Part shown: positions 6,624-25,890 of the stretch, piece by piece | Numbering within the stretch: position 1 is the stretch's first letter | Layout of the letters: each line of letters begins with the position of its first letter | Origin: Escherichia coli | Lineage (GTDB): Bacteria > Pseudomonadota > Gammaproteobacteria > Enterobacterales > Enterobacteriaceae | DNA length: 64,000 bases | Direction: 5' to 3' (one strand) | Assembly (NCBI RefSeq): GCF_030384885.1 | Contig: NZ_CP128613.1 | Notes under the pieces: generated by a model | Told to the model about the DNA's origin: nothing | Seen by the model: the letters and a program-made list of their open reading frames with translations, nothing else | Databases searched by the model: none | Program-made: the position numbers and the translations under genes

Positions 6624-8162
6624 ATGACCAACAATCCCCCTTCAGCACAGATTAAGCCCGGCGAGTATGGCTTCCCCCTCAAGTTAAAAGCCCGCTACGA
6701 CAACTTTATTGGCGGCGAATGGGTAGCCCCTGCCGACGGCGAGTATTACCAGAACCTGACGCCGGTGACCGGGCAGCTACTGTGCGAAGTGGCGTCTTCG
6801 GGCAAACGAGATATCGATCTGGCGCTGGATGCTGCGCATAAAGTGAAAGATAAATGGGCGCATACTTCGGTGCAGGATCGCGCGGCGATTCTGTTTAAGA
6901 TTGCCGATCGAATGGAGCAGAACCTCGAACTTTTAGCGACGGCTGAAACCTGGGATAACGGCAAACCCATTCGCGAAACCAGTGCTGCTGATGTACCGCT
7001 GGCGATTGACCACTTCCGCTATTTCGCCTCGTGTATTCGGGCGCAGGAAGGCGGTATTAGCGAAGTGGATAGCGAAACCGTGGCTTATCACTTCCACGAA
7101 CCGTTAGGCGTGGTGGGGCAGATTATCCCGTGGAACTTCCCGCTGTTGATGGCGAGCTGGAAAATGGCTCCCGCGCTGGCGGCGGGCAACTGTGTGGTGC
7201 TGAAACCCGCACGTCTTACCCCGCTTTCTGTACTGCTGCTAATGGAAATCGTTGGTGATTTACTGCCGCCGGGCGTGGTGAACGTGGTTAACGGCGCTGG
7301 TGGGGAAATTGGCGAATATCTGGCGACCTCGAAACGCATCGCCAAAGTGGCGTTTACCGGCTCAACGGAAGTGGGCCAACAAGTTATGCAGTACGCCACG
7401 CAAAATATTATTCCGGTAACCCTGGAACTGGGCGGCAAGTCGCCAAATATCTTCTTTGCTGATGTGATGGATGAAGAAGATGCCTTTTTCGATAAAGCGC
7501 TGGAAGGCTTTGCACTGTTTGCTTTTAACCAGGGCGAAGTTTGCACCTGTCCAAGTCGTGCCTTAGTGCAGGAGTCTATCTACGAACGCTTTATGGAACG
7601 CGCCATCCGCCGTGTCGAAAGCATTCGTAGCGGTAACCCGCTCGACAGCGTGACGCAAATGGGGGCGCAGGTTTCTCACGGGCAATTGGAAACCATCCTC
7701 AACTACATTGATATTGGTAAAAAAGAGGGCGCAGACGTGCTCACCGGCGGGCGGCGCAAGCTGCTGGAAGGCGAACTGAAAGACGGCTACTACCTCGAAC
7801 CGACGATTCTGTTTGGTCAGAACAATATGCGCGTTTTCCAGGAAGAAATTTTTGGCCCGGTGCTGGCGGTAACCACCTTCAAAACGATGGACGAGGCGCT
7901 GGAGCTGGCGAACGACACGCAATATGGTCTGGGCGCAGGTGTCTGGAGTCGTAACGGCAATCTGGCCTATAAGATGGGGCGCGGCATTCAGGCCGGACGC
8001 GTATGGACCAACTGTTATCATGCCTACCCGGCACACGCAGCATTTGGCGGCTATAAGCAGTCGGGCATCGGGCGCGAAACCCATAAGATGATGCTGGAGC
8101 ATTATCAGCAAACCAAGTGCTTGCTGGTGAGCTACTCGGATAAACCATTGGGGCTGTTCTGA
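6624..8162 (+). CDS. aldB: Aldehyde dehydrogenase B
   Basis: Start chosen at ATG 6624 ([18 protein letters not shown] aaggag upstream) giving 512 aa; the track ORF from 6450 is an upstream in-frame extension. Confidence 0.9.
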
Positions 8163-8193
8163 TGTAAGAAGCTGGTCGCATCGGGAGGTCATT

Positions 8194-8295
8194 GCCTGAT
8201 GCGACGCTTTCGCGTCTTATCATGCCTGGGGGGGCATATATTTACGCCTGACTCCTGACCGTAGGCCGGATAAGGCGTTCACGCCGCATCCGGCA
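8194..8295. repeat. REP/BIME palindromic units
   Basis: gcctgatgcgacgc...cgtcttatcatgcc and taggccggataaggcgttcacgccgcatccggca consensus REP sequences. Confidence 0.85.
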
Positions 8296-8411
8296 TAAAC
8301 AAAGCGCACGTTGTTACAATTTGCGTTTTAAACCTACATGCGCAATAACCCAGACTACGCCAACAGAAGTGCGTTTCTGGCGGAAGCTGCCCGGCGTGTA
8401 TTGCCGGGCGT

Positions 8412-8747
8412 TTAATCTCGCGTTTCGATGGTGAGCGGGCGGACCAGGCTGTACAGCCACAGACCAAAACAAGCGATGGTGCCAATCACCACGGTGAGGA
8501 ACACACTGACTGACAGGCCTGCAAGCAATCCCGCAGGCAGGGCCAGCAGGCCGTGGATCACGGTGTCGTTCCATCTCACCAGATCGTAGCCAAACATGCC
8601 TAAAACGCCGCAAACCAGACCGTAAATCACCATTGGTGTTCCGAGGCCAATCAGCAATAAACGGTAGATAATTGAAGGTTTAATACGCTTTATCTGTACT
8701 GTGGATGTTTTACTGGGGTTATTCATTAGTTTGGTCAATAGTTCCAT
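8412..8747 (-). CDS. Hypothetical small membrane protein (three hydrophobic segments); may be spurious
   Basis: Open frame in otherwise intergenic DNA; strongly hydrophobic helix-like segments; start uncertain (ATG 8747 or track start 8795). Confidence 0.3.
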   Translation of the reverse strand: MELLTKLMNNPSKTSTVQIKRIKPSIIYRLLLIGLGTPMVIYGLVCGVLGMFGYDLVRWNDTVIHGLLALPAGLLAGLSVSVFLTVVIGTIACFGLWLYSLVRPLTIETRD

Positions 8748-8908
8748 TATTTCAATATGATAAACCTCGACCTGTTGAAAAGCCAGGTAGCACACTTCAG
8801 AAAGTATATAAAAAACAATATGTCGTTATATAAATAAGGAAATTGCACTGCATCATGGCATTTCATAATATGCGTTAATTGTTCTTTTTTATATTCTCTG
8901 AGGGAAAT

Positions 8909-9232
8909 ATGTTCCTGGACTATTTTGCACTGGGAGTGCTTATTTTTGTATTTCTGGTGATATTCTATGGGATTATTATTTTACATGATATTCCCTACCT
9001 GATTGCTAAAAAACGTAATCATCCTCATGCCGACGCCATTCATGTTGCTGGTTGGGTGAGTCTTTTTACGCTGCATGTTATCTGGCCATTTTTGTGGATT
9101 TGGGCCACGCTTTACCGCCCGGAGCGGGGATGGGGAATGCAAAACTATGACTCCTCCGTTGTGCAACTACAACAGCGTATTGCCGGGCTGGAGAAACAGC
9201 TCGCCGACATCAAATCCTCTTCTGCCGAGTAA
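8909..9232 (+). CDS. yiaW: Inner membrane protein YiaW (DUF3302)
   Basis: 107 aa from ATG 8909 ([11 protein letters not shown]), RBS gagggaaa; 6 bp upstream of yiaV. Confidence 0.85.
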
Positions 9233-9237
9233 TACTT

Positions 9238-10374
9238 ATGGATTTACTGATTATTTTGACCTATGTGGCTTTCGCATGGGCAATGTTTAAGATCTTCAAA
9301 ATTCCTGTAAATAAATGGACCATTCCCACCGCGGCCCTGGGTGGCATATTTATTGTCAGCGGTCTAATTCTGTTAATGAACTATAACCATCCGTATACCT
9401 TTAAAGCGCAAAAAGCGGTTATTTCTATTCCTGTTGTCCCGCAGGTGACAGGCGTGGTGATCGAAGTGACGGACAAGAAAAATACGCTGATTAAAAAAGG
9501 TGAGGTGCTATTTCGACTGGACCCGACGCGTTATCAGGCGCGGGTGGATCGGCTGATGGCGGATATCGTTACCGCAGAACATAAACAGCGGGCGTTGGGC
9601 GCAGAGTTAGATGAGATGGCGGCGAATACTCAGCAGGCAAAGGCCACGCGGGATAAATTCGCTAAAGAGTACCAGCGTTACGCACGCGGCAGCCAGGCGA
9701 AAGTAAACCCGTTTTCAGAACGCGATATTGATGTGGCGCGGCAAAATTATCTGGCGCAGGAAGCCTCCGTAAAGTCATCGGCGGCGGAACAAAAACAGAT
9801 CCAGAGCCAGCTGGATAGCCTGGTGTTGGGTGAACATTCTCAAATCGCCAGCCTGAAAGCGCAGCTCGCGGAAGCAAAATATAACCTTGAGCAGACGATA
9901 GTGCGTGCGCCGAGCGATGGTTATGTGACCCAAGTGCTGATTCGTCCGGGTACCTATGCCGCATCGCTGCCGCTACGTCCTGTGATGGTGTTTATACCCG
10001 ATCAGAAACGACAAATTGTGGCGCAGTTCCGTCAGAACTCCTTGCTGCGACTGGCTCCCGGCGATGATGCGGAAGTGGTGTTTAATGCTCTGCCAGGTAA
10101 GGTATTCAGCGGTAAGCTGGCAGCCATTAGTCCAGCTGTTCCCGGCGGAGCTTATCAGTCGACCGGCACCTTACAGACGTTAAACACAGCACCGGGTTCA
10201 GATGGCGTTATAGCGACCATTGAACTGGATGAGCACACTGAGTTGAGCGCTTTACCAGACGGTATTTACGCCCAGGTGGCGGTTTACTCTGATCATTTCA
10301 GCCATGTCTCGGTGATGCGCAAAGTGCTGTTACGCATGACCAGTTGGGTGCATTACCTTTATCTCGATCATTAA
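9238..10374 (+). CDS. yiaV: HlyD-like membrane fusion-type inner membrane protein YiaV
   Basis: 378-aa ORF, N-terminal TM segment and coiled-coil region, recognised. Confidence 0.88.
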
Positions 10375-11345
10375 TCTTCGCTTTCCGCCGCTTGTTCAGG
10401 CCGCAGTTGCTGCGACTGAGCAAGCTGGTGGCGAATTTCACGCAGCATTTCATCCAGCACATACTGGACCCGCCAGGGCTGGTATTCCCGTTTACGGAAG
10501 ATAGCCACCAGATCCAGCCACCATTCATACGGTTGCTGAAAGCAGGGCACCAGCGTGCCGTCTTGCAGGTCGCTCTGCACACTTTTGTCTGGCGCAAACA
10601 CAATCCCCAGGTGATTTCGTGCCAGCTCCAGCGCCGATTGCGTGTTGTCGCAAACGTAATTTCCCTTCACGCGATAATCCCGCACCTCTTTACTCCCGGC
10701 GACGTTGAAGCGCCAGATATTCGCGTCGTCGATCATCATCGAGTCGATCAAAATACAGGAGTGATGTTCGAGTTCGTCAGGACGGCTAATGGGATGTTTC
10801 TCAAGATAGCGCTGACTGGCATAAGCGGTTACGGCATATTGCGTAATAAAACTGGCAACCAGCGATTCATCTTTTGGTGGAGCATAGCTGATTAAAACAT
10901 CACAATCATCGGGAAATTCGACACCTTCATAAAAGGCATTACGCTCAAGATTGCAGGTTTTTAGCGATAAGGTGATATCACCGATATCTTTAATTTTATC
11001 GATAACATGTTTGGATAAATAGGTAATTATGCCGGTTGGGGCGTAGATGGTGACCCGACCACGCTTCTCATGCTTATAATCTGCAATAAAATTATTAAGT
11101 TGCTCGTTTCTGTCCAGCATGTCGTTGATGTACGGTAACAGCGCGGTACCAAAAGGTGTGAGCATCAGCTGCCGGGTGGTTCGGTCAAAGACTTTTAAAC
11201 CTACTTTTGATTCAAAATCAGCAAGATATTTGCTGACGTTGGCCTGTGCGAATCCAAGTACAGTCGCGGCATGGCTGATATTTTCACTGGCAGCGATTAC
11301 CGAGATAATTTTTAACTCCCGGTACTTAAGTTGTAATTTTGTCAT
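10371..11345 (-). CDS. yiaU: LysR-family transcriptional regulator
   Basis: 324-aa ORF with N-terminal LysR HTH; divergent from yiaT. Confidence 0.9.
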
Positions 11346-11468
11346 CGCAACAGCCCAATTATATATAATTTTATATATTACTATATAAATATGAATCTTG
11401 CACCGGAGAAATTGTAAGCATTATTATGCCGACTCTTTTTTATCTTATTTTAAAATGGAATACCGGAC

Positions 11469-12209
11469 ATGTTAATTAACCGCAATATTGTGGCGTTATT
11501 TGCGTTACCTTTTATGGCAAGCGCAACTGCTTCTGAATTATCCATTGGTGCTGGTGCAGCTTATAATGAATCGCCTTATCGTGGTTATAATGAAAATACA
11601 AAGGCAATTCCGCTGATTAGTTATGAAGGTGATTCATTTTATGTTCGTCAGACCACGTTAGGTTTTATTCTGTCGCAAAGTGAAAAAAATGAACTTAGTC
11701 TGACCGCATCCTGGATGCCGCTGGAATTTGACCCTGCAGATAATGACGATCATGCCATGCAACAGCTTGATAAGCGTGATAGTACGGCTATGGCGGGGGT
11801 TGCCTGGTATCACCACGAGCGTTGGGGAACCGTGAAAGCCTCTGCGGCTGCGGACGTTCTGGATAACAGCAACGGCTGGGTGGGGGAGCTATCGGTATTT
11901 CACAAAATGCAGATAGGTCGCCTGTCGCTGACACCTGCACTGGGCGTTCTCTATTATGACGAGAATTTCAGTGACTATTACTATGGCATTTCAGAGAGTG
12001 AGTCCCGTCGTAGCGGTCTGGCAAGTTATTCCGCGCAGGATGCCTGGGTGCCCTATGTCAGCCTGACGGCAAAATACCCGATAGGAGAGCACATCGTATT
12101 GATGGCGAGTGCCGGATACAGCGAGCTGCCGGAAGAGATTACCGACAGCCCGATGATTGATCGTAATGAGAGTTTTACCTTTGTCACCGGCGTGAGCTGG
12201 CGTTTTTAA
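11469..12209 (+). CDS. yiaT: Outer membrane protein YiaT (MipA/OmpV family)
   Basis: 246-aa ORF with signal peptide, recognised. Confidence 0.88.
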   Translation: MLINRNIVALFALPFMASATASELSIGAGAAYNESPYRGYNENTKAIPLISYEGDSFYVRQTTLGFILSQSEKNELSLTASWMPLEFDPADNDDHAMQQLDKRDSTAMAGVAWYHHERWGTVKASAAADVLDNSNGWVGELSVFHKMQIGRLSLTPALGVLYYDENFSDYYYGISESESRRSGLASYSAQDAWVPYVSLTAKYPIGEHIVLMASAGYSELPEEITDSPMIDRNESFTFVTGVSWRF

Positions 12210-12218
12210 TTTACCGGT

Positions 12219-12338
12219 GGATGTCGGTGCGGCTGGCCTACGCTCTCGCACTGACCTTCAGGCTTGATAAGACGCGTTAAGCGTCGCATCAGGCAATGTG
12301 CACCCTACGTTGGATGCGGCGCGAGCGCCTTATCCAAC
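12219..12338. repeat. REP/BIME palindromic units directly abutting the stop codon of the GH127 gene
   Basis: ggcttgataagacgcgttaagcgtcgcatcaggc and ggatgcggcgcgagcgccttatccaacctac REP-type palindromes. Confidence 0.8.
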
Positions 12339-14309
12339 CTACGGATGGCAATGCTTTTCCTCATTCACCCAGATCCGCATTTCGCCTTCACCCCGGTTAG
12401 CCCAGCTAAACCACGGGATAAATGTCAGAGTTTGCGGCTGGCGTTTGGCTGGCGCGCTGTCGTAATGCCACAGCGGTTGCTGCTCTGGATAGCTCTGTTC
12501 ATACCGGTAACCCGGTGCCTGGATTAAGATCTTATGGCTGAACAATCCCTTACCTTCAAATGTCGTAAATGGCGCATCGGTGGGCAGCCACAGATTATGC
12601 AGTGACTCGCCGTTGTCGGCCTGTTCCAGGCAATACACCAGCGGGCCGCGCTGAATCGCCACTTTTCCGGCGACGTGACGCACCAGCGGGTTACCGTAAA
12701 CGCGACGTACCGGCATTGGCAACGTCAGATTCAGCGTGTCGCCCTCCTGCCATTCGCGGGTAATGTGCAAATACCCTTTACGAATATCCTGCTCGACCTC
12801 TTCCCCATTCAATGTAATCTGCGGCTGTGTGCACCAGTCCGGCAGACGTAAAGCCAGCGTATGACGCACCGGCTGGGGCGATTCAACCGCAATTGTCACC
12901 TGTTCCTGCCACGGATAGTTTCCGCTAACCCGCAGACGCAGCGTGCCATTTTCTACCGGCACTTCCATGCTGTTTCCTGCGTAGATGTTGATATACAACG
13001 CATCTTCACGCGGCGTGTAGAGATAATGACCAATCGAGGTTAGCACGCGGGCGATATTTGGCGGACAACAAGCGCAACCAAACCAACGCTGGCGGATCGG
13101 CTTAACGTGATCGTAGATATGGTTGAATTTCAGCGATTTTGGATGTACTTCCAGCGGATTCACATAGAAGAAATGTTTGCCATCCAGCGCCATGCCGCCG
13201 AGCACGGTGTTGTACAGTGCGCGCTCCATCACATCGGCATAGTGACTGTCGCCTTCCATTTCCAGCATTCGCCGGGCGAACATCATCAGGCCGATGGAAG
13301 CACAGCTTTCGGCGTATACCGTGTCATTCGGCAGATCGTAATCGCTGCTGAACGCTTCGCCGCTGCTTTGTGAGCCAATGCCGCCGGTAATATATAACTG
13401 ACGCTGGGCCATATTGTTCCACAGCCGCAGGCAGTCCTGACGCTTGCTTTCATCGTGACTTAAACGCGCGAGATGCGCGACGCCGGTCATCAGGTAGACA
13501 AAACGTACCGCGTGACCAATGGCGGTTTGCTGCTGTGCGATGGGCAAATGTGCCTGGCTGTAGGCTTTGTCTTTCACCATCCACGCCGGGCCGTAGGTGT
13601 GCCAGTGCGAGGTCTGTCCGCGCTTTTCATATTCCTGGTCGTAATAGTGCGGTTGCGCACCACGCTGTTCGACAAAATAGTTCGTCAGCGCCAGGTAGCG
13701 CGGCTCTTCGGTCACTTCATACAGGCGCATTAGTGCCAGTTCAATTTCCGGGTGACCAGGATAACCGTGTAACTTACTTTCACCTGGACCAAATACGCTG
13801 TCGATATGATCGGCCAGACGGCAAACCACTTCCAGCAAGCGCCGCTTGCCCGTGGCCTGGAAGAAGGCGACTCCGGCTTCAATCAGATGACCGGCGCAGT
13901 AAAGTTCATGACACTCCGCCAGATTGCTCCAGCGTTCTTCGGGCGCTTTTACCGTAAAGTAAGTATTGAGATAGCCATCTTCGCACTGGGCGGAAGCGAC
14001 CAGTTCGATTACCTCGTCAGCAGTTTTTTCCAGTTCGGCATCCGGCTTCTGGCACAGCGACCAGGCTACCGCTTCCAGCCATTTGGCGACGTCGCTGTCC
14101 TGAAACACCATCCCGTAAAATTCACCGTCTTGCAGTCCTGCGGCAATGCGAAAGTTTTCAATCGCATGGCTGGGTTCCGCTTCTGGGATACGATCGTTCA
14201 AGGCATCCCACTGATAAGGAATCACCACGTCGCGGACCAGTTGTTGGTACTGACCGAGGAACGGATCGCTGACCGTCAGTTTATGCAGATCGACTTCCGA
14301 AATGTTCAT
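12339..14309 (-). CDS. Glycoside hydrolase family 127 (DUF1680; beta-L-arabinofuranosidase-like)
   Basis: Start chosen at ATG 14309 (MNISEVDL) with AAGGAG RBS, about 656 aa; contains E-S-C (codons near 13298-13310) and C-A-C-C (near 13065-13076) matching the Zn/Cys catalytic motifs of GH127; 10 bp after the transporter stop. Confidence 0.8.
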   Translation of the reverse strand: MNISEVDLHKLTVSDPFLGQYQQLVRDVVIPYQWDALNDRIPEAEPSHAIENFRIAAGLQDGEFYGMVFQDSDVAKWLEAVAWSLCQKPDAELEKTADEVIELVASAQCEDGYLNTYFTVKAPEERWSNLAECHELYCAGHLIEAGVAFFQATGKRRLLEVVCRLADHIDSVFGPGESKLHGYPGHPEIELALMRLYEVTEEPRYLALTNYFVEQRGAQPHYYDQEYEKRGQTSHWHTYGPAWMVKDKAYSQAHLPIAQQQTAIGHAVRFVYLMTGVAHLARLSHDESKRQDCLRLWNNMAQRQLYITGGIGSQSSGEAFSSDYDLPNDTVYAESCASIGLMMFARRMLEMEGDSHYADVMERALYNTVLGGMALDGKHFFYVNPLEVHPKSLKFNHIYDHVKPIRQRWFGCACCPPNIARVLTSIGHYLYTPREDALYINIYAGNSMEVPVENGTLRLRVSGNYPWQEQVTIAVESPQPVRHTLALRLPDWCTQPQITLNGEEVEQDIRKGYLHITREWQEGDTLNLTLPMPVRRVYGNPLVRHVAGKVAIQRGPLVYCLEQADNGESLHNLWLPTDAPFTTFEGKGLFSHKILIQAPGYRYEQSYPEQQPLWHYDSAPAKRQPQTLTFIPWFSWANRGEGEMRIWVNEEKHCHP

Positions 14310-14319
14310 CTTGTGCTCC

Positions 14320-15720
14320 TTAAGGCTGTACATGACGCTGACGCAGGTCGCTAGCAATGCGTGACATCATAGGGTTATTGAGTTTGCAAAAGCGGATCGC
14401 CATCGCCAGCAGCAGGTGGAACAGCGCAGGCAGCAATGTTTCCATCGCCGCGATCCCGCCAAGCGAACTGGCGGTCTGGTTTTCCACGCCTGGCTGGTAG
14501 GCGACAAAAATAAACAGCAGGCTGATGATCCCGGCGCTGGAGGCCCAGGCCAGCTTGATGAAAAACAGATTGAAGGCGAAGTTCATGCCGGAAGAACGTA
14601 CGCGGGTTTTCCACTCGCCGTAGTCATCGGCAAAGGCCATCAATGAGAAGTGCAATGGCAATGTGAAGCCAAGAATCACGCCATTACCAAGGATCACCGC
14701 CAGCCACAGCGTTTGATAAGCCGGGCCAGAAGGCAGGAACCACATCAACACCGCCAGCGCGGCGAGGAGCAGGTTGGTGTAGTAGTAAATTTTGACGGTA
14801 TCGAAACGTCGCGTTAACGGGCTGACAATCACCGAGCCGATAATGGAGGCGAAGGTGACCATAGTGAAGAACAGCGACGTGTAGCCCGTACTGCCTTGTA
14901 AGACGTAGGTAATGAAGTACATATACCCACCGCCGCGAATATTAAAGACGTTAATCAGCAGGAAAGACATGACCAGCATCAGCAGCAGTTGGTCGTTGTT
15001 TCGCAGCCCGGCAAGATGTTCGCGCAGGGTAAATTTCCCCATTGTGGAGAGTGGCACCCGTTCACGAACCCAGAAGAAACAGCACAGGAACATCACCACA
15101 GCGATGGCGCACAGCACGCCGACGCCCAGTTGATAGCCGCGCGCGGCATTACCCTGACCGAAGAGATCTACCATCCACGGCAGGCCAACCGAAACCAGAA
15201 ATCCCGCTACGCCGCAGAGAACGAATCGCCAGGACTGGCAGGAGATCACTTCATTGTGGCGGGTGGTCATGGTGTTGATCAGCGCGCAGTACGGCACGTT
15301 GATGGCGGTATAACCGACTGAAAGGAGCAGGTAAGTGCCGAACGCCCAGGCGATTTTTACTCCCATGCTGGCATCTGGCACGGTGAACGTCAGGATGCCG
15401 ATAATGCCGATGGGAATGGCAATCCACAACTGCCACGGACGAAAGCGCCCCCAGCGACTTTGCGTCCGGTCGGCAATGACGCCCATCACCGGGTCGGAGA
15501 TGGCATCAAACACGCGCAGTGCAATAAACAGCGTGCCGACCAGCGCCGGAGTTAAGCCAAAAACGTCGGTGTAGAAAAAGGTGAGAAAGTTCATGATCAG
15601 GCAGGTTATGACGGTGCCGCCAGCGTCACCCAGGCCGTAGCCTATTTTTTCCCGTACAGATAACGCGTCGTCAATTTTACCTTTAGCGATATCAGCGGTA
15701 GTAATCGGTGTAGAGGTCAT
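14320..15720 (-). CDS. GPH-family (glycoside-pentoside-hexuronide) cation symporter, MFS superfamily
   Basis: About 466 aa from ATG 15720 ([16 protein letters not shown]); multi-TM; GPH signature [13 protein letters not shown]; track start at 15735 is TTG. Confidence 0.8.
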
Positions 15721-15945
15721 AGATATTCCTCGCAAATAGAGAGCATTTTTTTGTTTTATTGCAATGACCTGATTAATTTCGCCGTTATCTGGAATATCAA
15801 CAAGGCGAGAAAAGAGTAAAAAAAGGTGACGATTCCGACCTGAATTTAAAAGTGTGAATTGGATCAGGTGAAATTAATGTTTTTGATTAATAATCAAAAG
15901 GTAATGTGTTTAATCATTAATGAATAAGCGGGAAATTACATATCA
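15721..15945. promoter_or_regulatory. AT-rich divergent promoter region between GPH/GH127 operon and AraC gene, with palindromes
   Basis: 225-bp intergenic; palindromes ttttgattaataatcaaaa (15881-15899) and tcattaatga (15914-15923). Confidence 0.45.
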
Positions 15946-16761
15946 ATGCTCGAATTATCCATGACGTTACCGATTAAAGTGCAAAATGGTGGATTATTTA
16001 TTTCCCGTGGCGTAGGGAGGCATCCGGCAAGGCGGCTGGAGTCATGGGAAATTATCTTTGTCGAAAAAGGTCGATTAGCGATTCAGGAAGAAGAGCGGAT
16101 ATTTCTGGTCGATGCGGGAGAGAGTTTATTACTCTGGCCGAACCGACAGCATGTTGGGGTAGAGGATTTTCCCGCCGATCTCAAATTTTACTGGCTGCAT
16201 TTTGAGGTTAAAGCGCCGGATAGCGACCCGCGCTGGCTCACTCATCTTAGCGTGCCGCAACAAACGAAGGTTGCCGATCCGCAGGCGCTGGTGGCCCTGT
16301 TTCGCCAGTTCTTAAGCGAACAGGAAAAGCATCAACGCACTCCGGCGCTGGAGTTTATTGTGCTGCTGATTTTGCAGCAACTCACCCGTGACGCGCGTCT
16401 TGATGAACAGGCCGATGCCGCAGGTACCACGCTTGCCTGGAAAGCGCAGAAACTGATCCGCACGCAATATCATCGCCCGCTTTCCACTGCGCTTTTAGCC
16501 CGCGAGCTGTACTGCAATGCCGATTATCTTGGGCGCGTCTATCGGCGGGTGTTTCATCTGACGTTAACAGAAGCAATCCACCGCCAGCGGGTGCGCGAAG
16601 CCGAAAAGCTGTTAATTAGCGACGCGCGCTCGCTCACGGAAGTGGCGGCGTTGTGCGGGTTTAATGACGTTGGCTATTTCCGGCAGATTTTTCGCAAACA
16701 CACCGGATTAACGCCAGCTGCGTGGAAGCGACGTTACAGCAAGGAACATATCAATTCGTAG
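15946..16761 (+). CDS. AraC/XylS-family transcriptional regulator
   Basis: 271-aa ORF; C-terminal dual HTH (LTEVAALCGFNDVGYFRQIFRKHTGLTPAAWK); N-terminal sugar-binding-type domain. Confidence 0.8.
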   Translation: MLELSMTLPIKVQNGGLFISRGVGRHPARRLESWEIIFVEKGRLAIQEEERIFLVDAGESLLLWPNRQHVGVEDFPADLKFYWLHFEVKAPDSDPRWLTHLSVPQQTKVADPQALVALFRQFLSEQEKHQRTPALEFIVLLILQQLTRDARLDEQADAAGTTLAWKAQKLIRTQYHRPLSTALLARELYCNADYLGRVYRRVFHLTLTEAIHRQRVREAEKLLISDARSLTEVAALCGFNDVGYFRQIFRKHTGLTPAAWKRRYSKEHINS

Positions 16762-16792
16762 TGTCGGGGCAATGAAGCCCCGGCGTGAGAGA

Positions 16793-17488
16793 TTACTGCC
16801 CGTAATAGGCATTGGCCCCATGCTTACGCAGGTAGTGCTTATCCAGCAGTTCGTTTTGCATGGCAGGGAGCTGTGGTGCAAGCTGGCGCGAGAACAGGCC
16901 CATATAGGCGCACTCTTCCAGCACTACGGCATTATGCACCGCATCGGCGGCATTTTTTCCCCAGGCGAACGGGCCGTGAGAATGCACCAGTACCGCCGGG
17001 ATTTGTGCCGGACTCCTGCCACGTTCTTCGAAGGTTTCAATGATCACTTTGCCGGTCTGGTATTCATACTCGCCGTTAATCTCCGCTGCGGTCATCTGTC
17101 GCGTGCAGGGGATTGCGCCATAGAAATAATCGGCGTGAGTGGTGCCCCAGGCGGGGAGATCCAGCCCGGCCTGCGACCAGATGGTGGCGTGGCGCGAGTG
17201 GGTATGCACAATACCACCGATTTCGGCATAGCGACGGTAAAGCGCCAGATGCGTTGGCGTATCGGACGAGGGCTTTTTGCTACCTTCCACCACCTTGCCG
17301 CTGGCTATCTCAACCACCACCATATCGTCGGCGGTCATCACGTCGTACTCGACGCCGGAAGGTTTGATTACCATCCATTGCCGCGTTTCGTCTACCGCGC
17401 TGACATTGCCCCAGGTAAACGTCATCAGATGGTGAGCGGGAAGCGCCAGATTTGCCGCCAGCACGTCGGCTTTCAGTTGCTCTAACAT
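16793..17488 (-). CDS. sgbE: L-ribulose-5-phosphate 4-epimerase
   Basis: 231-aa ORF, AraD-like class II aldolase fold, recognised. Confidence 0.9.
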
Positions 17489-18342
17489 ATAAAACCTGCC
17501 TCCTGCATACGCGCTTCAATCCAGCGCCGCGCCTGAATAATCTCCAGCACCGGCTCTTTGGCTTTTTCGGTCCACATCTCAATCAGAAATGATCCGCGAT
17601 AGTTCAGTTCATGCAGCGTTTTGAAGATACCAACGAAATCGACGCAGCCTTCGCCAAACGGCACGTCGCGGAACTGTCCGGGGCTATGCTCGGTCACTGG
17701 CTGGGTATCTTTCAGGTGGATGGCGGCGATACGGTCAATGCCCAGTTTCAGTTCAGCGGGAACATCATTGCCCCAGGCGCTAAGGTTACCGACGTCCGGG
17801 TAGACGGTGAACCACGGCGAGGCGAGTATCTCGTCCCACTTTTTCCATTTGCTGATGGAGTTCATAAACGCGGTATCCATAATCTCCACCGCCAGCATTA
17901 CTTGTGATGCCGCCGCCTGTTCGACAGCCCACGTCAGCCCTTCAGCAAAACGTTGCCGGGTACCTTCGTCATGGTCTTCGTAATAGACGTCGTAGCCCGC
18001 CAGTTGAATGGTGCGAATACCGAGATCGCGCGCCAGATGAATTGCTTTGCTCATGATCTCCAGTGCTCGCTGGCGTACCGCGTCGTCACGGCTACCAAAG
18101 GGAAAACGACGATGTGCGGACAGGCACATCGACGGGATCCCAACACCCGTTTCGATCATCGCGGCAACCAGCGAAGTCCTTTGTGCGGCGCTCCAGTCAA
18201 GGCGCGACAGACGCTCGTCAGTTTCATCCACCGACATTTCGACAAAATCAAAGCCACAGCTTTTCGCCAGCACCAGCCGCTCCGGCCAGGAGAGATCTTT
18301 CGCCAGCGCTTTTTCATAAATCCCTAACGGATGATTACGCAC
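17482..18342 (-). CDS. sgbU: L-xylulose-5-phosphate 3-epimerase
   Basis: Recognised; start set at GTG 18342 (286 aa); alternative ATG at 18375 would overlap sgbH by 41 bp. Confidence 0.85.
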
Positions 18343-18997
18343 GTGCGCCTCCCCAGATAGCGTCGATTTGCGCATGGAAGTCGGCAGCTACCTGTGCCGG
18401 ATTTGCTGCGCCTGCCAGCGCCCGCCCGGCAATAAACGCTTTCACGCGGATATCTTTAAACAGCGGCAGGTCAGCAGGCGTAATCCCGCCGGTAATGGAA
18501 AGCTCAAGGCCGATATCGGAAAGCGCCTTCATGCGTGCCAGATCGGCTTCGCCCCACTGTTGCCCGCTGGCCTGCGCGTCACGACCACGATGATAAATCG
18601 CCTGCCGCACGCCAATACGATGCCAGTCGTGGGCGTCGTCCAGCGTCCAGTTACCAAAAAGCTCTATCTGGATTTCACCACCGCAGCGTTGCGCCATTGC
18701 GTGGCCTTTTTCTACCGTCGCGAGCGGCGCAGCGCAGATGATGGTCATCCAGTTAGCGCCTGCGCCAAACGCCTGTTGCGCGAGCGTTTCACCAGCATCG
18801 GCGACCTTCCAGTCAGCAACGATGATTTTGTCCGGGCACTGTTCGCGCAAGGTTTTCACCGCGCCAAGCCCTTCGTTTAAACAGAGAATGGTGCCCGCTT
18901 CGACGATATCGACGCTGTCTTTTAACAGCGTAACGTCGCGCTGTGCGGCTTCAAGTGATGAGTGGTCGAGGGCCAGTTGCAGAAGTGGTCTGCTCAT
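18335..18997 (-). CDS. sgbH: 3-keto-L-gulonate-6-phosphate decarboxylase
   Basis: 220-aa ORF, recognised. Confidence 0.9.
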
Positions 18998-20490
18998 AAT
19001 GTGTTCTCCTTAACGCGGGCATGAAAGCCCTGTAGTGCGGCAATGAGGTGCTGATAGCGTTGGTATTTTTGTTGGTAAAGCTGATGGGCGGTCATATCCG
19101 GTAACAGGGTGCGCACCGGGTGCTGTTGATCGCGCTGGGCTTCGCTGAAATCGCGATAAACACCGGTGCCGACGCGGGCAGCAAGCGCCGCGCCAAAACA
19201 GCCGGTTTCTTCCACCTGTGGCAGCTCGATACGTAAGCCGCTAACGTCCGCCAGCATTTGCATCCAGACATCGGAGTGCGCCGGGCCGCCAGTCACGCGC
19301 AGGGTGTGCACATCAGTAAAACGTTCGCGCATCCGGTTGAGGTGGGTCATATGGCTGAACACCACGCCTTCATAAATGGCCTGCAACAGGTGTGCGCGGG
19401 TGTGAATGGCCTGCATCCCGTAGAAACCGCTGGTCATCTCGAGTCCGGCGTTGCTGCCGTACAGGAACGGCAGGAAAAAGAGATCGCCACCGGCTTTCGG
19501 TAAGCTGGCAACAGCCTGGTTGATCTCAGCAAACGAGATTTCTCCCCACTGCGCGGTAAACCATTCGAGATTGCCGGAAGAGGTAGGGCTGGCTTCGTGA
19601 ACGATAAATTCACCGTCGTTAACGTAGCGGCCATAGACATACGGATGCGCTTCACCGCCACCTAAACCGCAGGTTATGCCGCTGGTCACCGCCCAGGTCC
19701 CCATCACCGCATTGAGGGTAAATTCGTCTTCGATTCCGGCGCAGAGTGCGGTAGAAACCACATCAAACAGGCCGCCGACAACGGGCGTACCCGCTTTCAG
19801 ACCGGTCAGTACGGCTGTCTGAGCGGTGATTTCCCCGCAGATTTCGGCAGATCCGACAACAGGCGGCAGGGCGTGATTGATTTCACTGATCCCCAGCCAG
19901 TCGGTGAGGCACGGGTCATATTCCCCAAGACTCATGTTGTAGAGATTGGACTCAGAAATATTGCTCTCTTCACAACCTTTGACACCGGTTAAACACCAGC
20001 GCAGGTAGTCGTGCGTCATCATCACGCAGCCAATTTGCGCGTAGCGTTCTGGTTCGTGTTCTTTCAGCCAGCGTAACAGCGACACCGGATGCCCGGTCCA
20101 CAAGGTTTGTCGGGTCAGCGGGTAGAGTTTTTCCGGGATGCTATCTTCCTGCCAGCGACGAACGATTTCCATCGCCCGGCGATCCGAGGACAAAATGGCG
20201 TTACCGAGCGGCTTGTCGTTTTTATCCAGCAAAAACAAGCCCTTTCCCTGTGCGGAGATACCGATGCCGACAATTTGCTCCCCGCTAACGCTGGAATGGG
20301 TAAGCAGGGAGCGAATGACAGCCATGCAGCATTGCCACAGTTCTGCCATATCGCGCTCTGCCCAGCCTGGCTGCGGGCTTAATGCGCACAGCGGCAGGCG
20401 CTGCACGCCTGCCTCCCGGCCTTCGCGGTCATACAGGCCGGCTTTCAGCCAGCTACCGCCACAATCTAACCCCAGCCAGTATTGCGTCAT
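18994..20490 (-). CDS. lyxK: L-xylulose/3-keto-L-gulonate kinase
   Basis: 498-aa ORF, FGGY kinase family, recognised. Confidence 0.9.
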   Translation of the reverse strand: MTQYWLGLDCGGSWLKAGLYDREGREAGVQRLPLCALSPQPGWAERDMAELWQCCMAVIRSLLTHSSVSGEQIVGIGISAQGKGLFLLDKNDKPLGNAILSSDRRAMEIVRRWQEDSIPEKLYPLTRQTLWTGHPVSLLRWLKEHEPERYAQIGCVMMTHDYLRWCLTGVKGCEESNISESNLYNMSLGEYDPCLTDWLGISEINHALPPVVGSAEICGEITAQTAVLTGLKAGTPVVGGLFDVVSTALCAGIEDEFTLNAVMGTWAVTSGITCGLGGGEAHPYVYGRYVNDGEFIVHEASPTSSGNLEWFTAQWGEISFAEINQAVASLPKAGGDLFFLPFLYGSNAGLEMTSGFYGMQAIHTRAHLLQAIYEGVVFSHMTHLNRMRERFTDVHTLRVTGGPAHSDVWMQMLADVSGLRIELPQVEETGCFGAALAARVGTGVYRDFSEAQRDQQHPVRTLLPDMTAHQLYQQKYQRYQHLIAALQGFHARVKENTL

Positions 20491-20493
20491 GGC

Positions 20494-21480
20494 TTATTGC
20501 ACCTCATCCACGGCTTTCAGCAGTTCATCGCCCTGCGGAACATCTTTTACAAACATGTCGCGGACCTGAGTACCCAGTACGTCGCTAAAGGCTTTGCGAT
20601 CAAGTTCGGTGATGACTTCCACGCCAGCGTCTTTCATGCCGTCGATGATTTTTTGCTGATTTTCGGCGACCAATTTGCGCTGGTAATTACCCGCTTCTTG
20701 CGCAGATGAAATTAGCGCTTGCTGGAACTCCGGGCTTAAGCCATCAAACTTCGCTTTGTTGATCACCACCAAAAGCGGGGAATAGGCATGGTGCGTCAGA
20801 GAAAGGTACTTCTGCACTTCATAAAATTTGGCTGACCAGACGACGTTGATCGGGTGTTCCTGAGCGTCGATAGTGCGCGTTTCCAGCCCGGTATAGACTT
20901 CGGCAAACGGCATCGGGATCGGGTTAGCGCCAAAGACTTTGAATGCGGCGATATTCATCGGGCTATTGTTGGTGCGTATTTTCAGCCCTTTCAGGTCGGC
21001 AGGTGTTTTAACTGGCTGGCGTGAGTTGGTGACATCGCGCCAGCCGTTTTCCCAGTAGGCCAGTACTTTCAGTCCCTTACCTTCAAGGGAGGCCTTCAGT
21101 TCATCGCCGACTTTGCCGTCGAGTGTTTTATGCGCGTGGGCGGTATCGCGGAACAGGAAAGGAACATCAAGCAGGTTCATCACAGGTGATAACCCGGCAA
21201 AGTTATTCGAGCCGGACATTTCCATATCGATGGTGCCGCCACGTACGCCGCTGATCATCGCCTGCGCGTTACCGAGAGTGCTGTCCGGGAACAGTTTTAA
21301 TTTCAGCTCGCCTTTGGTTCTCTCCTGCAATAAATCATTAAATTTTTTCGCCGCAATATGTTGAGAGTCGGTTTGTGAGGTTTCATAACCGAAACGTAAT
21401 GATTGTGCCGCCAGAGAAGATGTGCTGAACGCCGCCACTCCGGCAATTAATAAAGCGTAGGTTACAGAGCGTAATTTCAT
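20494..21480 (-). CDS. yiaO: TRAP transporter periplasmic solute-binding protein (2,3-diketo-L-gulonate)
   Basis: 328-aa ORF with signal peptide, recognised. Confidence 0.9.
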   Translation of the reverse strand: MKLRSVTYALLIAGVAAFSTSSLAAQSLRFGYETSQTDSQHIAAKKFNDLLQERTKGELKLKLFPDSTLGNAQAMISGVRGGTIDMEMSGSNNFAGLSPVMNLLDVPFLFRDTAHAHKTLDGKVGDELKASLEGKGLKVLAYWENGWRDVTNSRQPVKTPADLKGLKIRTNNSPMNIAAFKVFGANPIPMPFAEVYTGLETRTIDAQEHPINVVWSAKFYEVQKYLSLTHHAYSPLLVVINKAKFDGLSPEFQQALISSAQEAGNYQRKLVAENQQKIIDGMKDAGVEVITELDRKAFSDVLGTQVRDMFVKDVPQGDELLKAVDEVQ

Positions 21481-21492
21481 TATATTTTCCTT

Positions 21493-22770
21493 TTAATTAA
21501 TCCATTTCAACGGGAGGATGATGAGATCGGGAATAAAAACAAATAAGGCTAATAAGGAATATAAAACCAGGACGTAAGGGAAAACGCCTCTGACTGCATC
21601 ATCGAATTTGAGTTTAGCCACCCCTGAAATAACGTTAAGCACATTACCGATAGGCGGTGTAATTAAGCCGATTGAGCAGTTGATGATAAACATGACTCCG
21701 AAGTAAATCGGATCGATTCCTGCCTCTTTAACTAAAGGCATTAATACCGGGGTAAGAATTAACACCGTCGGCGTTAAATCCATTACCATACCGACTATCA
21801 AAATCGCCAGCATAATAACGATAAACAGCAGACGCGGTGATTCCACTAACGGTTGCAGTAAATCAGAAACCATCATTGGCAGTTCAGCAATGGTAATTAG
21901 CCAGGCGGAAACTTGTGCCGAAGCCACCAGAAACATTACCACTGAGGTGGTTTTCGCCGCGCCAATAAGTACATGCCAAAGTGTGGCGAATGTCATTTCA
22001 CGGTAAATAACCGTGGCGACAAATAACGCATAGAAAGCAGCAACGGCCCCGGCTTCGGTAGGGGTAAACAGACCGGAGCGAAAGCCGCCAATAATAATGA
22101 CCGGAAGAAATAGCGCCCAGATACCGGAAACAAAAGAGTGCCAGATTTCTCGTTTCGTTGCTTTTTGCTGACGGGGTAAATTAAGACGACTGGCCTGCCA
22201 CCACCATGTGAGCATCAGCGTTGCGCCCATCATAATGCCTGGGGCAATGCCCGCCATAAACAACTTACTGATGGATAATCCGCTGGAAACACCGAAGATA
22301 ATAAATGGAATGGAAGGGGGAATAATTGGCGCGATAATCCCGCCAGAGGCAATCAGCCCCGCAGCACGGTTGACCGGGTAGTTAGCGCTGCGCATCATCG
22401 GCACCAGTAGCGCGGCAACGGCGGCGGTATCCGCAACAGCAGAACCGGAAAGGCTCGCCATAATCATTGCCGCCAGCACGCCTACGTAGCCCAACCCGCC
22501 TGGTTTATGCCCGACCAGTTTCATCGGCAGGTCAACAATGCGTTTTGATAAGCCGCCCGCATTCATGATTTCACCCGCCAGTACAAAGAACGGAATCGCC
22601 AGCAGGGAGAAGCTATCAGCACCGTTTACCAGCGTTTGCGCCATGATCTGGACATCAAACATATCCAGCCAGAACATAAGCGCCGCCCCGCACAACAGTA
22701 GCGACCAGGCAATAGGCAAACCGATAGCAATGCCACCCAACAGGCAGCCCAGAAAAATCAGCACAGCCAT
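21493..22770 (-). CDS. yiaN: TRAP transporter large permease
   Basis: 425-aa polytopic membrane ORF, recognised. Confidence 0.9.
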   Translation of the reverse strand: MAVLIFLGCLLGGIAIGLPIAWSLLLCGAALMFWLDMFDVQIMAQTLVNGADSFSLLAIPFFVLAGEIMNAGGLSKRIVDLPMKLVGHKPGGLGYVGVLAAMIMASLSGSAVADTAAVAALLVPMMRSANYPVNRAAGLIASGGIIAPIIPPSIPFIIFGVSSGLSISKLFMAGIAPGIMMGATLMLTWWWQASRLNLPRQQKATKREIWHSFVSGIWALFLPVIIIGGFRSGLFTPTEAGAVAAFYALFVATVIYREMTFATLWHVLIGAAKTTSVVMFLVASAQVSAWLITIAELPMMVSDLLQPLVESPRLLFIVIMLAILIVGMVMDLTPTVLILTPVLMPLVKEAGIDPIYFGVMFIINCSIGLITPPIGNVLNVISGVAKLKFDDAVRGVFPYVLVLYSLLALFVFIPDLIILPLKWIN

Positions 22771-22772
22771 GA

Positions 22773-23246
22773 TTAAGCTCCTTGCGGTGGCGGCGTTAGA
22801 GAATTGCTACGCGTGATGAGTTGATATAAAAGGCGCAGCTCAAAGAATGCGATAACGAGGCTGGTGGGCAGACAAGCGGCATACATCAGGCCGATGGGCA
22901 AGCCGAGGATCGGTGAATAATCGCTCCAGTCCTGAATTGTTTTTAGCGTTGCGCCCCAGGCCAGAGCGCCACAAATAAATAAGATTAAGGAATGGGTAAC
23001 CAGAGCGACTCGCCGCTGCCACGCGGGGGAGAGTTTCTCCACCAGAAAGGTAACCTGAACGTGGGCGTTATCCATAAAAGCCACAATCGCGCCAATAAAG
23101 GTTAACCAGACAAATAAATAACGCGACAATTCATCTACAGATAAAATACTTGTCTGAAAACCATATCTTAAAATAATGTTTATAAACACAATACAGGAAA
23201 GTACGGCGAGATTAATCGCCAGTATTGCTTCAAGTATTTTTTTCAT
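22773..23246 (-). CDS. yiaM: TRAP transporter small permease
   Basis: 157-aa membrane ORF, recognised. Confidence 0.9.
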
Positions 23247-23363
23247 AGCTATTCCTTGAGGCTATGTTTGTCATAATTCAAGTTGCATGTGCAGCAACCT
23301 GAATTATTAATATAGTTAGAGCAATAACATTACCCAGGCGTTCTGGCGTAGACGATTATTCGA

Positions 23364-23834
<471 letters not shown>

Positions 23835-23842
23835 TTATCTCC

Positions 23843-24841
23843 TTATAACGCCTGGATTTTTGCCCATACGCTGTCATCAACGGTAATACCGTTACGGCGG
23901 TTTTCTGCCAGCAGGGTGGTAAATTCGTGGCCGGGTAAGCGAATGGCCTGGTTTTCATCGGCGCGTTCAGCGGTGGTAATGTAATCCATGATACGTTGTA
24001 GCTTGGCATCGCGGGTGGCGCCGTCGATAAGCTTGTCCACTTCAACGGCGATAAAGATTTGCGAAACGCCATATTCGTCGCTGTTATCCTGGGTGACTTC
24101 GGCAACGGATGCGCCGTCGGAAAGGAGAGTAGCGATCATATCCAGCACGATCGACATACCAGAACCTTTCCAGTAGCCCATCGGCAAAATGCGGCGATTT
24201 TTTTCGATAATGCCAGGTTCTTTGGTCAAATTGCCCTTATCATCAAAGCCACCATCGACCGGGAGCTGACGACCTGCAAGGCGGTTAACTTCTAACATGC
24301 CGTAGGAAAACATCGACATCGACATATCGACCATAGTGATCGGCGTGGAAGGAATCGCGACGATCAGCGGGTTAGTGCCGATACGACACTCTTTTGCGCC
24401 CCACGGCGGCATTACGGCGATGGAGTTGGTCCAGCAAATGCCAATATAGCCTTTTTCCGCCGCCTGCCAGCCGTAGCTGCCGCCGCGCATCCAGTGGTTG
24501 GCATTACGCAACGCCACCAGACCAATACCGTGATCGGCAGCCAGTTCAATGGCGCGATCCATCATCTTTTTCGCTGTCAGGTTACCGATCGAACGCTGGG
24601 CGTCCCACTGTTCAATTGCGCCGAGGCTGGTTATACGTTTGGCTTGGGCATCAGGAATGATATCGCCGTTTTCCAGTTGTTGAATGAAACGAGGGAAACG
24701 GTTGACGCCGTGAGAATAAACGCCGGATTCGGTGGTGCGGGCGAACATTTCGGCACAGGCATCAGCCGTTTCGCTGTCAACGCCGCGTGAAATTAAGACT
24801 CGATTAAAGGCTGCTTTTAACTGCTCAAATGTCACTTTCAT
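23843..24841 (-). CDS. yiaK: 2,3-diketo-L-gulonate reductase
   Basis: 332-aa ORF, first gene of the yiaK-sgbE operon, recognised. Confidence 0.9.
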
Positions 24842-25041
24842 CCCTGGCTTCCTTGTTTTTTTGATCGCTTTTTTGGCTTAAAATTTCAATATGCGAAATC
24901 TGATTTCAAATATATCGATCGCTTTTTAACAAAGCAATCTGATTAATGAATTTCAAAAGACTTAAAAATCAATTGGTTATAAATTATCTGTCGAGATCGT
25001 GAACTACGGCACACTTTGCGCTACCATCAGGACGCGACAAA
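24842..25041. promoter_or_regulatory. Divergent yiaK / yiaJ promoter-operator region
   Basis: AT-rich 200 bp; repeated gatcgcttttt and atttcaa motifs; IclR-type regulator encoded adjacently. Confidence 0.5.
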
Positions 25042-25890
25042 ATGGGGAAAGAAGTGATGGGAAAAAAAGAGAACGAGATGGCGCAGGAAAAAGAGCGTCC
25101 AGCCGGAAGCCAGAGTCTGTTTCGCGGGTTGATGCTGATTGAGATTTTGAGCAACTATCCAAACGGTTGTCCGTTGGCGCATCTTTCGGAGCTGGCTGGT
25201 TTAAATAAGAGTACCGTCCATCGCTTATTGCAGGGATTACAATCCTGCGGCTATGTGACCACCGCGCCCGCCGCAGGGAGTTACCGCCTGACTACCAAAT
25301 TTATTGCCGTCGGGCAGAAGGCGCTGTCTTCGCTGAATATCATTCATATCGCCGCTCCGCATCTTGAGGCACTGAACATCGCCACTGGTGAAACCATTAA
25401 CTTCTCCAGCCGCGAAGACGATCACGCTATTTTGATTTATAAGCTGGAACCTACAACCGGGATGCTGCGAACCCGAGCTTATATAGGCCAGCATATGCCG
25501 CTCTACTGTTCCGCAATGGGCAAGATCTACATGGCGTTTGGTCACCCGGACTACGTGAAGTCATACTGGGAAAGCCATCAGCATGAGATCCAGCCGTTAA
25601 CCCGCAATACCATTACCGAGCTGCCCGCGATGTTCGACGAACTGGCGCACATTCGTGAAAGCGGAGCGGCGATGGACAGAGAAGAAAACGAACTCGGCGT
25701 CTCCTGTATTGCTGTTCCGGTGTTTGATATTCATGGGCGGGTGCCGTACGCCGTGTCGATTTCTCTTTCGACATCACGTCTGAAACAGGTGGGGGAGAAA
25801 AATCTCCTGAAACCACTGCGTGAAACCGCGCAGGCTATTTCTAATGAACTGGGATTTACTGTCAGGGACGACCAGGGCGCGATCACATAA
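25042..25890 (+). CDS. yiaJ: IclR-family transcriptional repressor of the yiaK-sgbE operon
   Basis: 282-aa ORF with IclR HTH, recognised. Confidence 0.9.
   Translation: MGKEVMGKKENEMAQEKERPAGSQSLFRGLMLIEILSNYPNGCPLAHLSELAGLNKSTVHRLLQGLQSCGYVTTAPAAGSYRLTTKFIAVGQKALSSLNIIHIAAPHLEALNIATGETINFSSREDDHAILIYKLEPTTGMLRTRAYIGQHMPLYCSAMGKIYMAFGHPDYVKSYWESHQHEIQPLTRNTITELPAMFDELAHIRESGAAMDREENELGVSCIAVPVFDIHGRVPYAVSISLSTSRLKQVGEKNLLKPLRETAQAISNELGFTVRDDQGAIT

Follow-up and report, generated by a model that had tools for sequence, protein, structure and literature searches.

Here we analyze a 64,000-nucleotide stretch of the Escherichia coli genome (the window; RefSeq assembly GCF_030384885.1, contig NZ_CP128613.1) and, within it, a block of three genes at positions 12339-16761, between yiaT and sgbE, that encode a GH127-family glycosidase, a transporter and an AraC-family regulator. 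We conclude, at a probability of about 90%, that this block is a catabolic module inherited vertically within the enterobacteria, that the window shows the ancestral and most complete arrangement of the aldB-yiaJ interval, and that the module is absent from K-12 by deletion. A first-pass annotation of this DNA, made from the sequence alone, had offered either an old acquisition or a lineage-specific deletion in K-12-like strains. The latter is the correct alternative, as two internal deletions and the remnants ysaD and ysaC attest, and the former is excluded by the same gene order across many enterobacterial genera and by GC content, third-position GC content (GC3) and codon usage that match those of the neighboring genes.

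The module in related genera

With the GH127 protein as query we scanned a single genome of each species, retained the best 80 loci and mapped the proteins of the window onto them. The order sgbE-AraC-MFS-GH127-yiaT-yiaU-yiaV-yiaW-aldB-yiaY, where MFS is the major facilitator superfamily transporter, recurs in several Citrobacter species (five loci) and in Pseudocitrobacter. Eight loci from Enterobacter, Lelliottia and Huaxiibacter read sgbE-AraC-MFS-GH127-yiaT-yiaU-aldB, Salmonella enterica subsp. diarizonae has sgbE-AraC-MFS-GH127-aldB, and the core sgbE-AraC-MFS-GH127 is found in Klebsiella, Raoultella, Kosakonia and Phytobacter. The GH127 protein is 97% identical in cryptic Escherichia and 78-88% identical in other genera, becoming less similar as the taxonomic distance grows.

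The composition of the module is native as well. Its GC content is 0.53-0.55, its GC3 0.57-0.70 and its window-based codon adaptation index (CAI) 0.64-0.74, against a background of 0.70 ± 0.05 for CAI and 0.58 ± 0.06 for GC3, so that the module is indistinguishable from its flanks and the island expectation behind the suggested compositional check is not borne out. Open reading frames, Pfam domains and the annotation of the Prokaryotic Genome Annotation Pipeline (PGAP) reveal no integrase or transposase within or beside the block, and a search for direct repeats bracketing it (12210-12340 and 16760-16800) returned only short families expected by chance, with no target-site duplication among them. 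These results agree with the first-pass statements that the block lacks mobility genes and flanking repeats and that it is not a recent mobile insertion. None of the hallmarks of a genomic island is present, whether a mobility gene, direct repeats, foreign composition, or a scar-free empty site combined with absence from related genera. Because of the synteny across genera and the native composition, we consider the module ancestral at this site and exclude its acquisition there.

One locus in the same scan carries an unexpected species name. An assembly titled Chryseobacterium sp. 18061 has an enterobacterial GH127 gene (85% identity) in the same AraC-MFS-GH127 order, with an aldB of 93% identity, and is probably mislabeled or contaminated.

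Origin of the K-12 state

The K-12-type locus matches the window by BLAST in three collinear pieces, 9900-12236, 12447-12636 and 16658 onward; K-12-like strains lost the module through two illegitimate-recombination deletions inside it. Deletion 1 removes 216 bp (12237-12452) between two copies of GGCTGG, at 12231-12236 and 12447-12452, and takes with it both repetitive extragenic palindromic (REP) sequences and the last 36 codons of the GH127 gene. Deletion 2 removes 4,021 bp (12637-16657) across a blunt junction with no microhomology, which eliminates the transporter gene entirely, most of the GH127 gene and some 237 codons of the AraC-family gene. Three of the four breakpoints (12236/12447 and 12636/16658) lie in coding sequence, and the fourth is 27 bp past the yiaT stop. 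The first-pass annotation had placed the boundaries between presence and absence at the REP cluster and at the hairpin before sgbE; no K-12 breakpoint falls within either element, and no REP is left at the K-12 junction.

What survives in K-12 corresponds to two annotated pseudogenes. The remnant ysaD (b4649) covers 12447-12636 on the minus strand, or codons 558-621 or so of GH127 (190 bp, 88.9% identity), and ysaC (b4648) covers 16658-16761 on the plus strand, that is, the last 34 codons and the stop of the AraC-family gene (104 bp, 93% identity). PGAP calls both partial, ysaD with both termini missing, and the MG1655 annotation puts the two genes exactly at the surviving fragments. The module is missing from K-12, as the first-pass annotation had it, but its remnants are present nonetheless. 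Five of the six substitutions unique to ysaD fall at codon positions 1 or 2, whereas 27 of the 40 polymorphic sites among intact GH127 alleles fall at position 3. This contrast is consistent with decay of the remnant after inactivation. The remnants had already been annotated and all of the components are of known kinds; the finding is in this sense ordinary and already known. A literature search on yiaT, sgbE, ysaD and ysaC found only a strain table, in which the ysaC/ysaD junction of K-12 is listed as an insertion site for reporter cassettes (PMC12361893).

To ask how common each state is, we searched 5,426 complete E. coli genomes with probes specific for each junction. The interior of the module is present in 2,313 (43%), including BL21(DE3), and absent from K-12. 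The K-12 double-deletion junction was found in 2,461 genomes, each covering at least 80% of a 471-bp probe that spans both junctions, nearly all at 97% identity or more; because the junction is the same in all of them at the resolution of the probe, the deletion haplotype appears to have arisen once. The module-bearing genomes divide among the yiaT-REP-GH127 junction of the window (1,254 genomes, of which 427 have the O157:H7-type junction), an aldB-REP-GH127 junction without yiaWVUT (567) and an aldB-hicAB-GH127 junction (490). These sum to 2,311, in agreement with the 2,313 detected by the interior probe. In another 481 genomes, such as Nissle 1917, aldB is joined directly to sgbE, and about 171 fall outside these classes, sporadic IS1-associated deletions among them.

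Weighing the alternatives

The remnants bear directly on the idea of an old horizontal acquisition, in which an ancestor of some E. coli lineages gained the block at the yiaT-sgbE junction and K-12 represents the empty site. The K-12 site is not empty, as it holds internal fragments of the GH127 and AraC-family genes. Moreover, the same genes occupy the same place in many genera with no atypical composition or target-site duplication, and the short outgroup junctions, with the AraC-family and sgbE stops a few bp apart, leave no room for an insertion site. In its favor are the presence of the module in only 43% of complete genomes and the REP cluster on one side, REPs being frequent markers of variable intergenic regions; we regard acquisition as extremely improbable. 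We also think it very unlikely that the K-12 state arose by excision at the REP pair, through recombination or an activity of the REP-associated tyrosine transposase (RAYT) type, with the REP as the true left border. Deletion 1 does remove both REPs, with its left end 25 bp from the first, and recombination between REPs demonstrably occurred at this same REP in the aldB-REP-GH127 (D-type) genomes. However, deletion 1 ends outside the REPs, at GGCTGG copies located in the yiaT-proximal hairpin and inside GH127, both ends of deletion 2 are in coding sequence with no repeat, and the K-12 junction retains no REP. A single REP-mediated event as the source of the K-12 state was rejected, as no breakpoint lies in a REP.

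A further possibility is that the K-12-type state originated repeatedly. The locus does lose DNA again and again, with at least five other deletion haplotypes that include the sporadic IS1-associated ones, and classical laboratory strains show both states, BL21(DE3) with the module and K-12 without. Identical double breakpoints, one of them blunt, would not be expected to recur, however, and yet 2,461 genomes match the probe over both junctions; the K-12-type loci among the matches listed are all exactly 1,964 bp long. Descent together with homologous recombination accounts for the spread more economically, and we give recurrent loss only a slight chance. The preferred reading therefore remains a module inherited vertically and lost from the K-12 haplotype by deletion.

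Several observations weigh against this reading or qualify parts of it. The ysaD remnant differs by about 11% from each of the intact alleles and shares most of these differences with other deep alleles, which implies that the K-12 haplotype is old and that its history may involve recombination. The two K-12 deletions may have occurred in either order or as one complex event. GH127 adjoins aldB without yiaT-yiaU in S. diarizonae, Klebsiella indica and one E. cloacae, and these genera make the ancestral position of yiaTU and yiaVW harder to assign with confidence than that of the module. E. albertii and E. fergusonii were not among the best 80 GH127 loci at one genome per species. With respect to the catabolic role, NCBIfam offers no equivalog-level name for the GH127 protein (the best, aceric acid hydrolase, scores 454 bits against a cut-off of 950), and the substrate that we assign to the E. 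coli protein is predicted from its GH127 homologues.

The REP pair at the 3' end of GH127

The GH127 gene runs on the minus strand and ends at 12339 with the codons K-H-C-H-P-TAG. Searching the window with the REP core pattern GATGCGRCG-N4-14-CGYCTTATC gave five matches, versus 0.00 expected from shuffles. Two of the cores, at 12266-12290 (minus) and 12313-12334 (plus), lie near the end of GH127 and are inverted with a short linker between them. They belong to a minus-strand element at 12261-12344 that resembles a bacterial interspersed mosaic element (BIME) and consists of one REP at about 12262-12295 (core on the minus strand) and another at about 12303-12344 (core on the plus strand), the latter a 20-nt imperfect palindrome (12303-12322 / 12325-12344). 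The Rfam family naRNA4 (RF02564) matches full-length at 12261-12339 (minus) with 67.8 bits, above the gathering score of 59.5, and this REP-based family is the only one found at gathering threshold over 8000-18000. Probes that contain the REPs match 2-5 places per E. coli genome. A consensus palindrome of about 35 nt, multiple copies and inverted pairing are the features by which REPs and BIMEs are recognized, and the pair has all three.

The first-pass annotation had the REP cluster abut the GH127 stop, with last codons HCHP-stop. The core matches, the palindrome and the end of the reading frame bear this out, and the overlap goes further, as the stop TAG (cta on the plus strand, 12339-12341) lies within the REP tail ccaacctac. 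The extent given for the cluster holds for the REP pair itself but not for 12219-12260, which belongs to a separate, non-REP hairpin just past the yiaT stop (12218-12260, seen in the RNA fold of plus-strand 12205-12350) whose left half contains the left GGCTGG copy at 12231-12236. The REP pair would form the 3' untranslated region of the GH127 mRNA, an ordinary 3'-end element.

A comparison of GH127 C-termini suggests how the stop came to lie in a REP. Outside Escherichia, the protein of most genera stops one or two residues past RIW(V/I)(N/D)E, as does that of PDB 4QJY, whereas the Escherichia proteins have 4-8 extra C-terminal codons that are absent from both. These tails vary, reading KHCHP in the window and O157, TSA in the hicAB type, TSAIRR in the aldB-REP type, and NRRHP or NRRHPQVG in cryptic clades, and in the four E. 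coli haplotypes, as in Escherichia sp. E1V33, the stop lies in REP or REP-like sequence. On the simplest reading of these sequences, the ancestral GH127 stop was lost and REP rearrangements now set the end of translation.

The spacer between the AraC-family gene and sgbE

At the other end of the block, the stops of the convergent AraC-family gene (16759-16761) and sgbE (16793-16795) are separated by a 31-bp spacer, which contains, as the first-pass annotation had noted, the hairpin cggggc-aatgaa-gccccg (16765-16782). In the predicted fold this GC-rich hairpin occupies 16763-16784 and extends to nine pairs, including one G-U, with a centroid energy of -17.3 kcal/mol and a z-score of -2.7, although one such palindrome would not be surprising by chance (at least one in 17 of 100 shuffles). 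It has the GC-rich stem-loop of a Rho-independent terminator and lacks the 3' U-rich tract: neither strand carries a T/U run next to it, and the terminator scan did not call it. The accompanying promoter scan produced no convincing promoter. Most likely the hairpin serves as a stem-loop common to the 3' ends of both convergent transcripts.

The short AraC-sgbE junctions of Enterobacter, Lelliottia, Huaxiibacter, Citrobacter, S. diarizonae and Pseudocitrobacter have the two stops within a few bp and no such hairpin, and the remaining genera have longer spacers that are unrelated in sequence. Because the outgroup junctions lack the hairpin, we interpret the 31-bp spacer and its hairpin as an Escherichia-specific addition. 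In Escherichia whittamii (L009 6657-8590), sgbU appears to adjoin the AraC-family gene and no sgbE was detected at that locus, which appears to be another independent loss at this junction.

Other deletion haplotypes at the locus

While the REP pair and the spacer hairpin do not delimit the K-12 deletions, each is the breakpoint of another deletion, the REP pair to the loss of yiaWVUT by REP-REP recombination and the hairpin to the loss of yiaK-sgbE in O157:H7 at CGAT microhomology. In the D-type genomes a hybrid REP stands beside GH127 (L005 3985-4075). Its 5' half is that of a REP on the aldB side (core 8269-8290, the second REP of a BIME at 8198-8296 downstream of aldB), and from CGCATC on it is the yiaT-side REP (12266-12290). 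This hybrid implies that two REPs of like orientation recombined, with deletion of 4,000 bp (8291-12290; yiaW, yiaV, yiaU and yiaT). The aldB-REP-GH127 state is also a deletion because outgroups have yiaT-yiaU beside GH127. In one strain of this type, KP63, the GH127 gene is annotated as frameshifted.

In O157:H7 the left arm and loop of the spacer hairpin (ccggggcgat) run straight into the 3' part of yiaJ, with CGAT as microhomology (L004 8340-8520). The deletion spans about 8.99 kb (window 16774-25760) and takes the whole yiaK-sgbE operon together with the 5' part of yiaJ, while the GH127 module is kept. In the 490 hicAB-type genomes a hicA/hicB toxin-antitoxin pair replaces yiaWVUT between aldB and GH127 (L006 3306-3918); here GH127 ends in VNEETSA and a single REP abuts the stop. 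The 481 aldB-sgbE genomes have a 46-bp join that keeps the hairpin gcccggcgtgtattgccgggc (window 8391-8411; L007 4953-5000), and over 5.8 kb their sgbE-yiaN region (L007 5001-10806) shares only 90% identity with the window, a striking divergence within a species. That this Nissle-type arrangement is ancestral and everything else was inserted was considered and rejected, since both the module and yiaTU are present at this site in the outgroups. Two IS1-associated cases were also seen: in ETEC4071 the order is selB-IS1-AraC and everything from yiaY through the transporter gene is lost (L088 2788-3628), and in an O121 strain IS1 stands in place of parts of yiaU and yiaT on a K-12-type background (L089 1271-2950).

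Altogether, six haplotypes occupy the aldB-yiaJ interval, each at a frequency of 8-45%, and their allelic lineages are unusually deep. It is conceivable, though we consider it unlikely, that the interval is a long-lived multi-allele structural polymorphism to which REP turnover may contribute, with the REP pair supplying the end and stop of GH127. If selection for and against the use of plant beta-L-arabinofuranosides keeps both states, the locus would exemplify niche-linked balanced gene loss.

Gene layout and predicted function

Positions 11400-17600 of the window are 100% identical to E. coli strain 2013C-4282, whose PGAP annotation we used for the genes. The local order is yiaY, aldB, yiaW, yiaV, yiaU (minus), yiaT (plus), GH127 (minus), MFS (minus), AraC-family (plus), sgbE (minus), sgbU, sgbH, lyxK and yiaO. 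PGAP and Pfam agree on exactly three genes between yiaT and sgbE. The left neighbor, yiaT (11469-12209, plus), encodes a MipA/OmpV-family outer-membrane protein (Pfam MipA, 1.4e-52). An apparently intact, beta-L-arabinofuranosidase-like GH127 protein of 656 amino acids is encoded at 12339-14309 (minus), and a 466-residue glycoside:cation symporter of the GPH family (Pfam MFS_2, 2.8e-73) at 14320-15720 on the same strand, upstream of GH127 with a 10-bp gap. The AraC-family regulator (271 amino acids; Pfam HTH_18 and AraC_binding) is divergent at 15946-16761 (plus), and the region between it and the symporter gene (15721-15945) is AT-rich, with the GC content dropping to 0.42 at 15600-16199; judging by the gene orientations, it would be the control region of the module. 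To the right, sgbE (16793-17488, minus; Pfam Aldolase_II) is annotated as L-ribulose-5-phosphate 4-epimerase.

The GH127 protein contains the catalytic (PF07944, 1.7e-111), middle (PF20736, 2.4e-24) and C-terminal (PF20737, 1.8e-25) domains of its family and aligns full-length with PDB 4QJY (1.9e-236), presumably the Geobacillus stearothermophilus enzyme, and with HypBA1 (about 1e-152). Residues E318, C414, E334, C336 and C415 are identical to HypBA1 E322, C417, E338, C340 and C418, which in HypBA1 provide the acid/base glutamate, the nucleophilic cysteine and a Glu/Cys3 zinc site. The transporter scores 333.2 bits against TIGR00792 (cut-off 231.35), which places it in the GPH family. By eye, no signal-peptide-like sequence is seen at the N-terminus of the GH127 protein, and it is for this reason that we predict it to be cytoplasmic. 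A literature search on GH127 in the context of E. coli returned nothing relevant.

The conserved catalytic residues were observed directly, as were the synteny, breakpoints, remnants and frequencies described above; the function proposed here draws on homology and gene arrangement alone. We propose that the GPH symporter would import a beta-L-arabinofuranoside, such as a beta-Araf oligosaccharide from plants, that the cysteine/zinc glycosidase GH127 would cleave it inside the cell, and that the L-arabinose released would enter the ara pathway. The module consists of an AraC-family regulator gene divergent from a two-gene unit of symporter and GH127, and both the uptake and intracellular cleavage of the glycoside and their regulation are predicted.

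Bradyrhizobium GH127 proteins (seven loci) are 71-72% identical to the E. coli protein and stand without the transporter and regulator as neighbors. This identity and the strong match to 4QJY suggest that the GH127 subfamily in question has moved between phyla.

Further features lie toward the left of the interval. A small hypothetical protein, WP_001064340.1, is encoded between aldB and yiaW (8412-8726, minus; PGAP annotation of strain 2013C-4282), and the hairpin at 8391-8411 is just downstream of its stop. Some haplotypes have a Fic-family protein gene between yiaY and aldB (L005 949-2244; L007 2012-3307), which the window lacks (6501/6520 are adjacent there).

Significance and comparison with known systems

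At this locus K-12 is the derived state, which explains the origin of the pseudogenes ysaC and ysaD but carries little weight beyond housekeeping, and the haplotype census and breakpoint map are tidy and unsurprising. In practical terms, BL21(DE3) and O157:H7 keep an apparently functional GH127/GPH/AraC module, which is relevant when their carbohydrate phenotypes are compared with those of K-12, and the junction census provides a simple set of structural markers for typing the locus. It also counsels caution, in that a variable block beside REPs is not automatically an island; at this locus the REPs and the hairpin are breakpoints of deletions other than those of K-12.

The block resembles genomic islands and integrative elements in being a variable multi-gene segment that adjoins repeat elements. 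It differs from them in having no integrase, transposase, att repeats or tRNA, in its native composition, and in that the orthologous site is filled in other genera. Compared with ysaD and ysaC of K-12, the window has the intact parent genes, to which the remnants are 89% and 93% identical, and the K-12 locus lacks both REPs. The GH127 protein shares with HypBA1 of Bifidobacterium longum (PDB 3WKW/3WRE) the three-domain architecture, the glutamate acid/base, the cysteine nucleophile and the zinc site, but the genomic context differs, being the hypBA cluster in Bifidobacterium and a GPH symporter with an AraC-family regulator in E. coli.

The REP pair, in turn, resembles the REP325-derived naRNA4 (RF02564) in its two inverted REPs, short linker, core consensus and match above the gathering score. 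REP325 is a tandem array, however, whereas the element in the window is a single unit that overlaps a stop codon. Liang, Rudd and Deutscher (Mol Cell 2015) reportedly found that a REP starting no more than about 15 nt from a termination codon causes ribosome stalling, mRNA cleavage and rescue by transfer-messenger RNA (tmRNA), and lowers translation of the upstream gene. In the window the REP begins at the GH127 stop itself, and by analogy the REP might damp translation of GH127 through ribosome stalling and tmRNA rescue.

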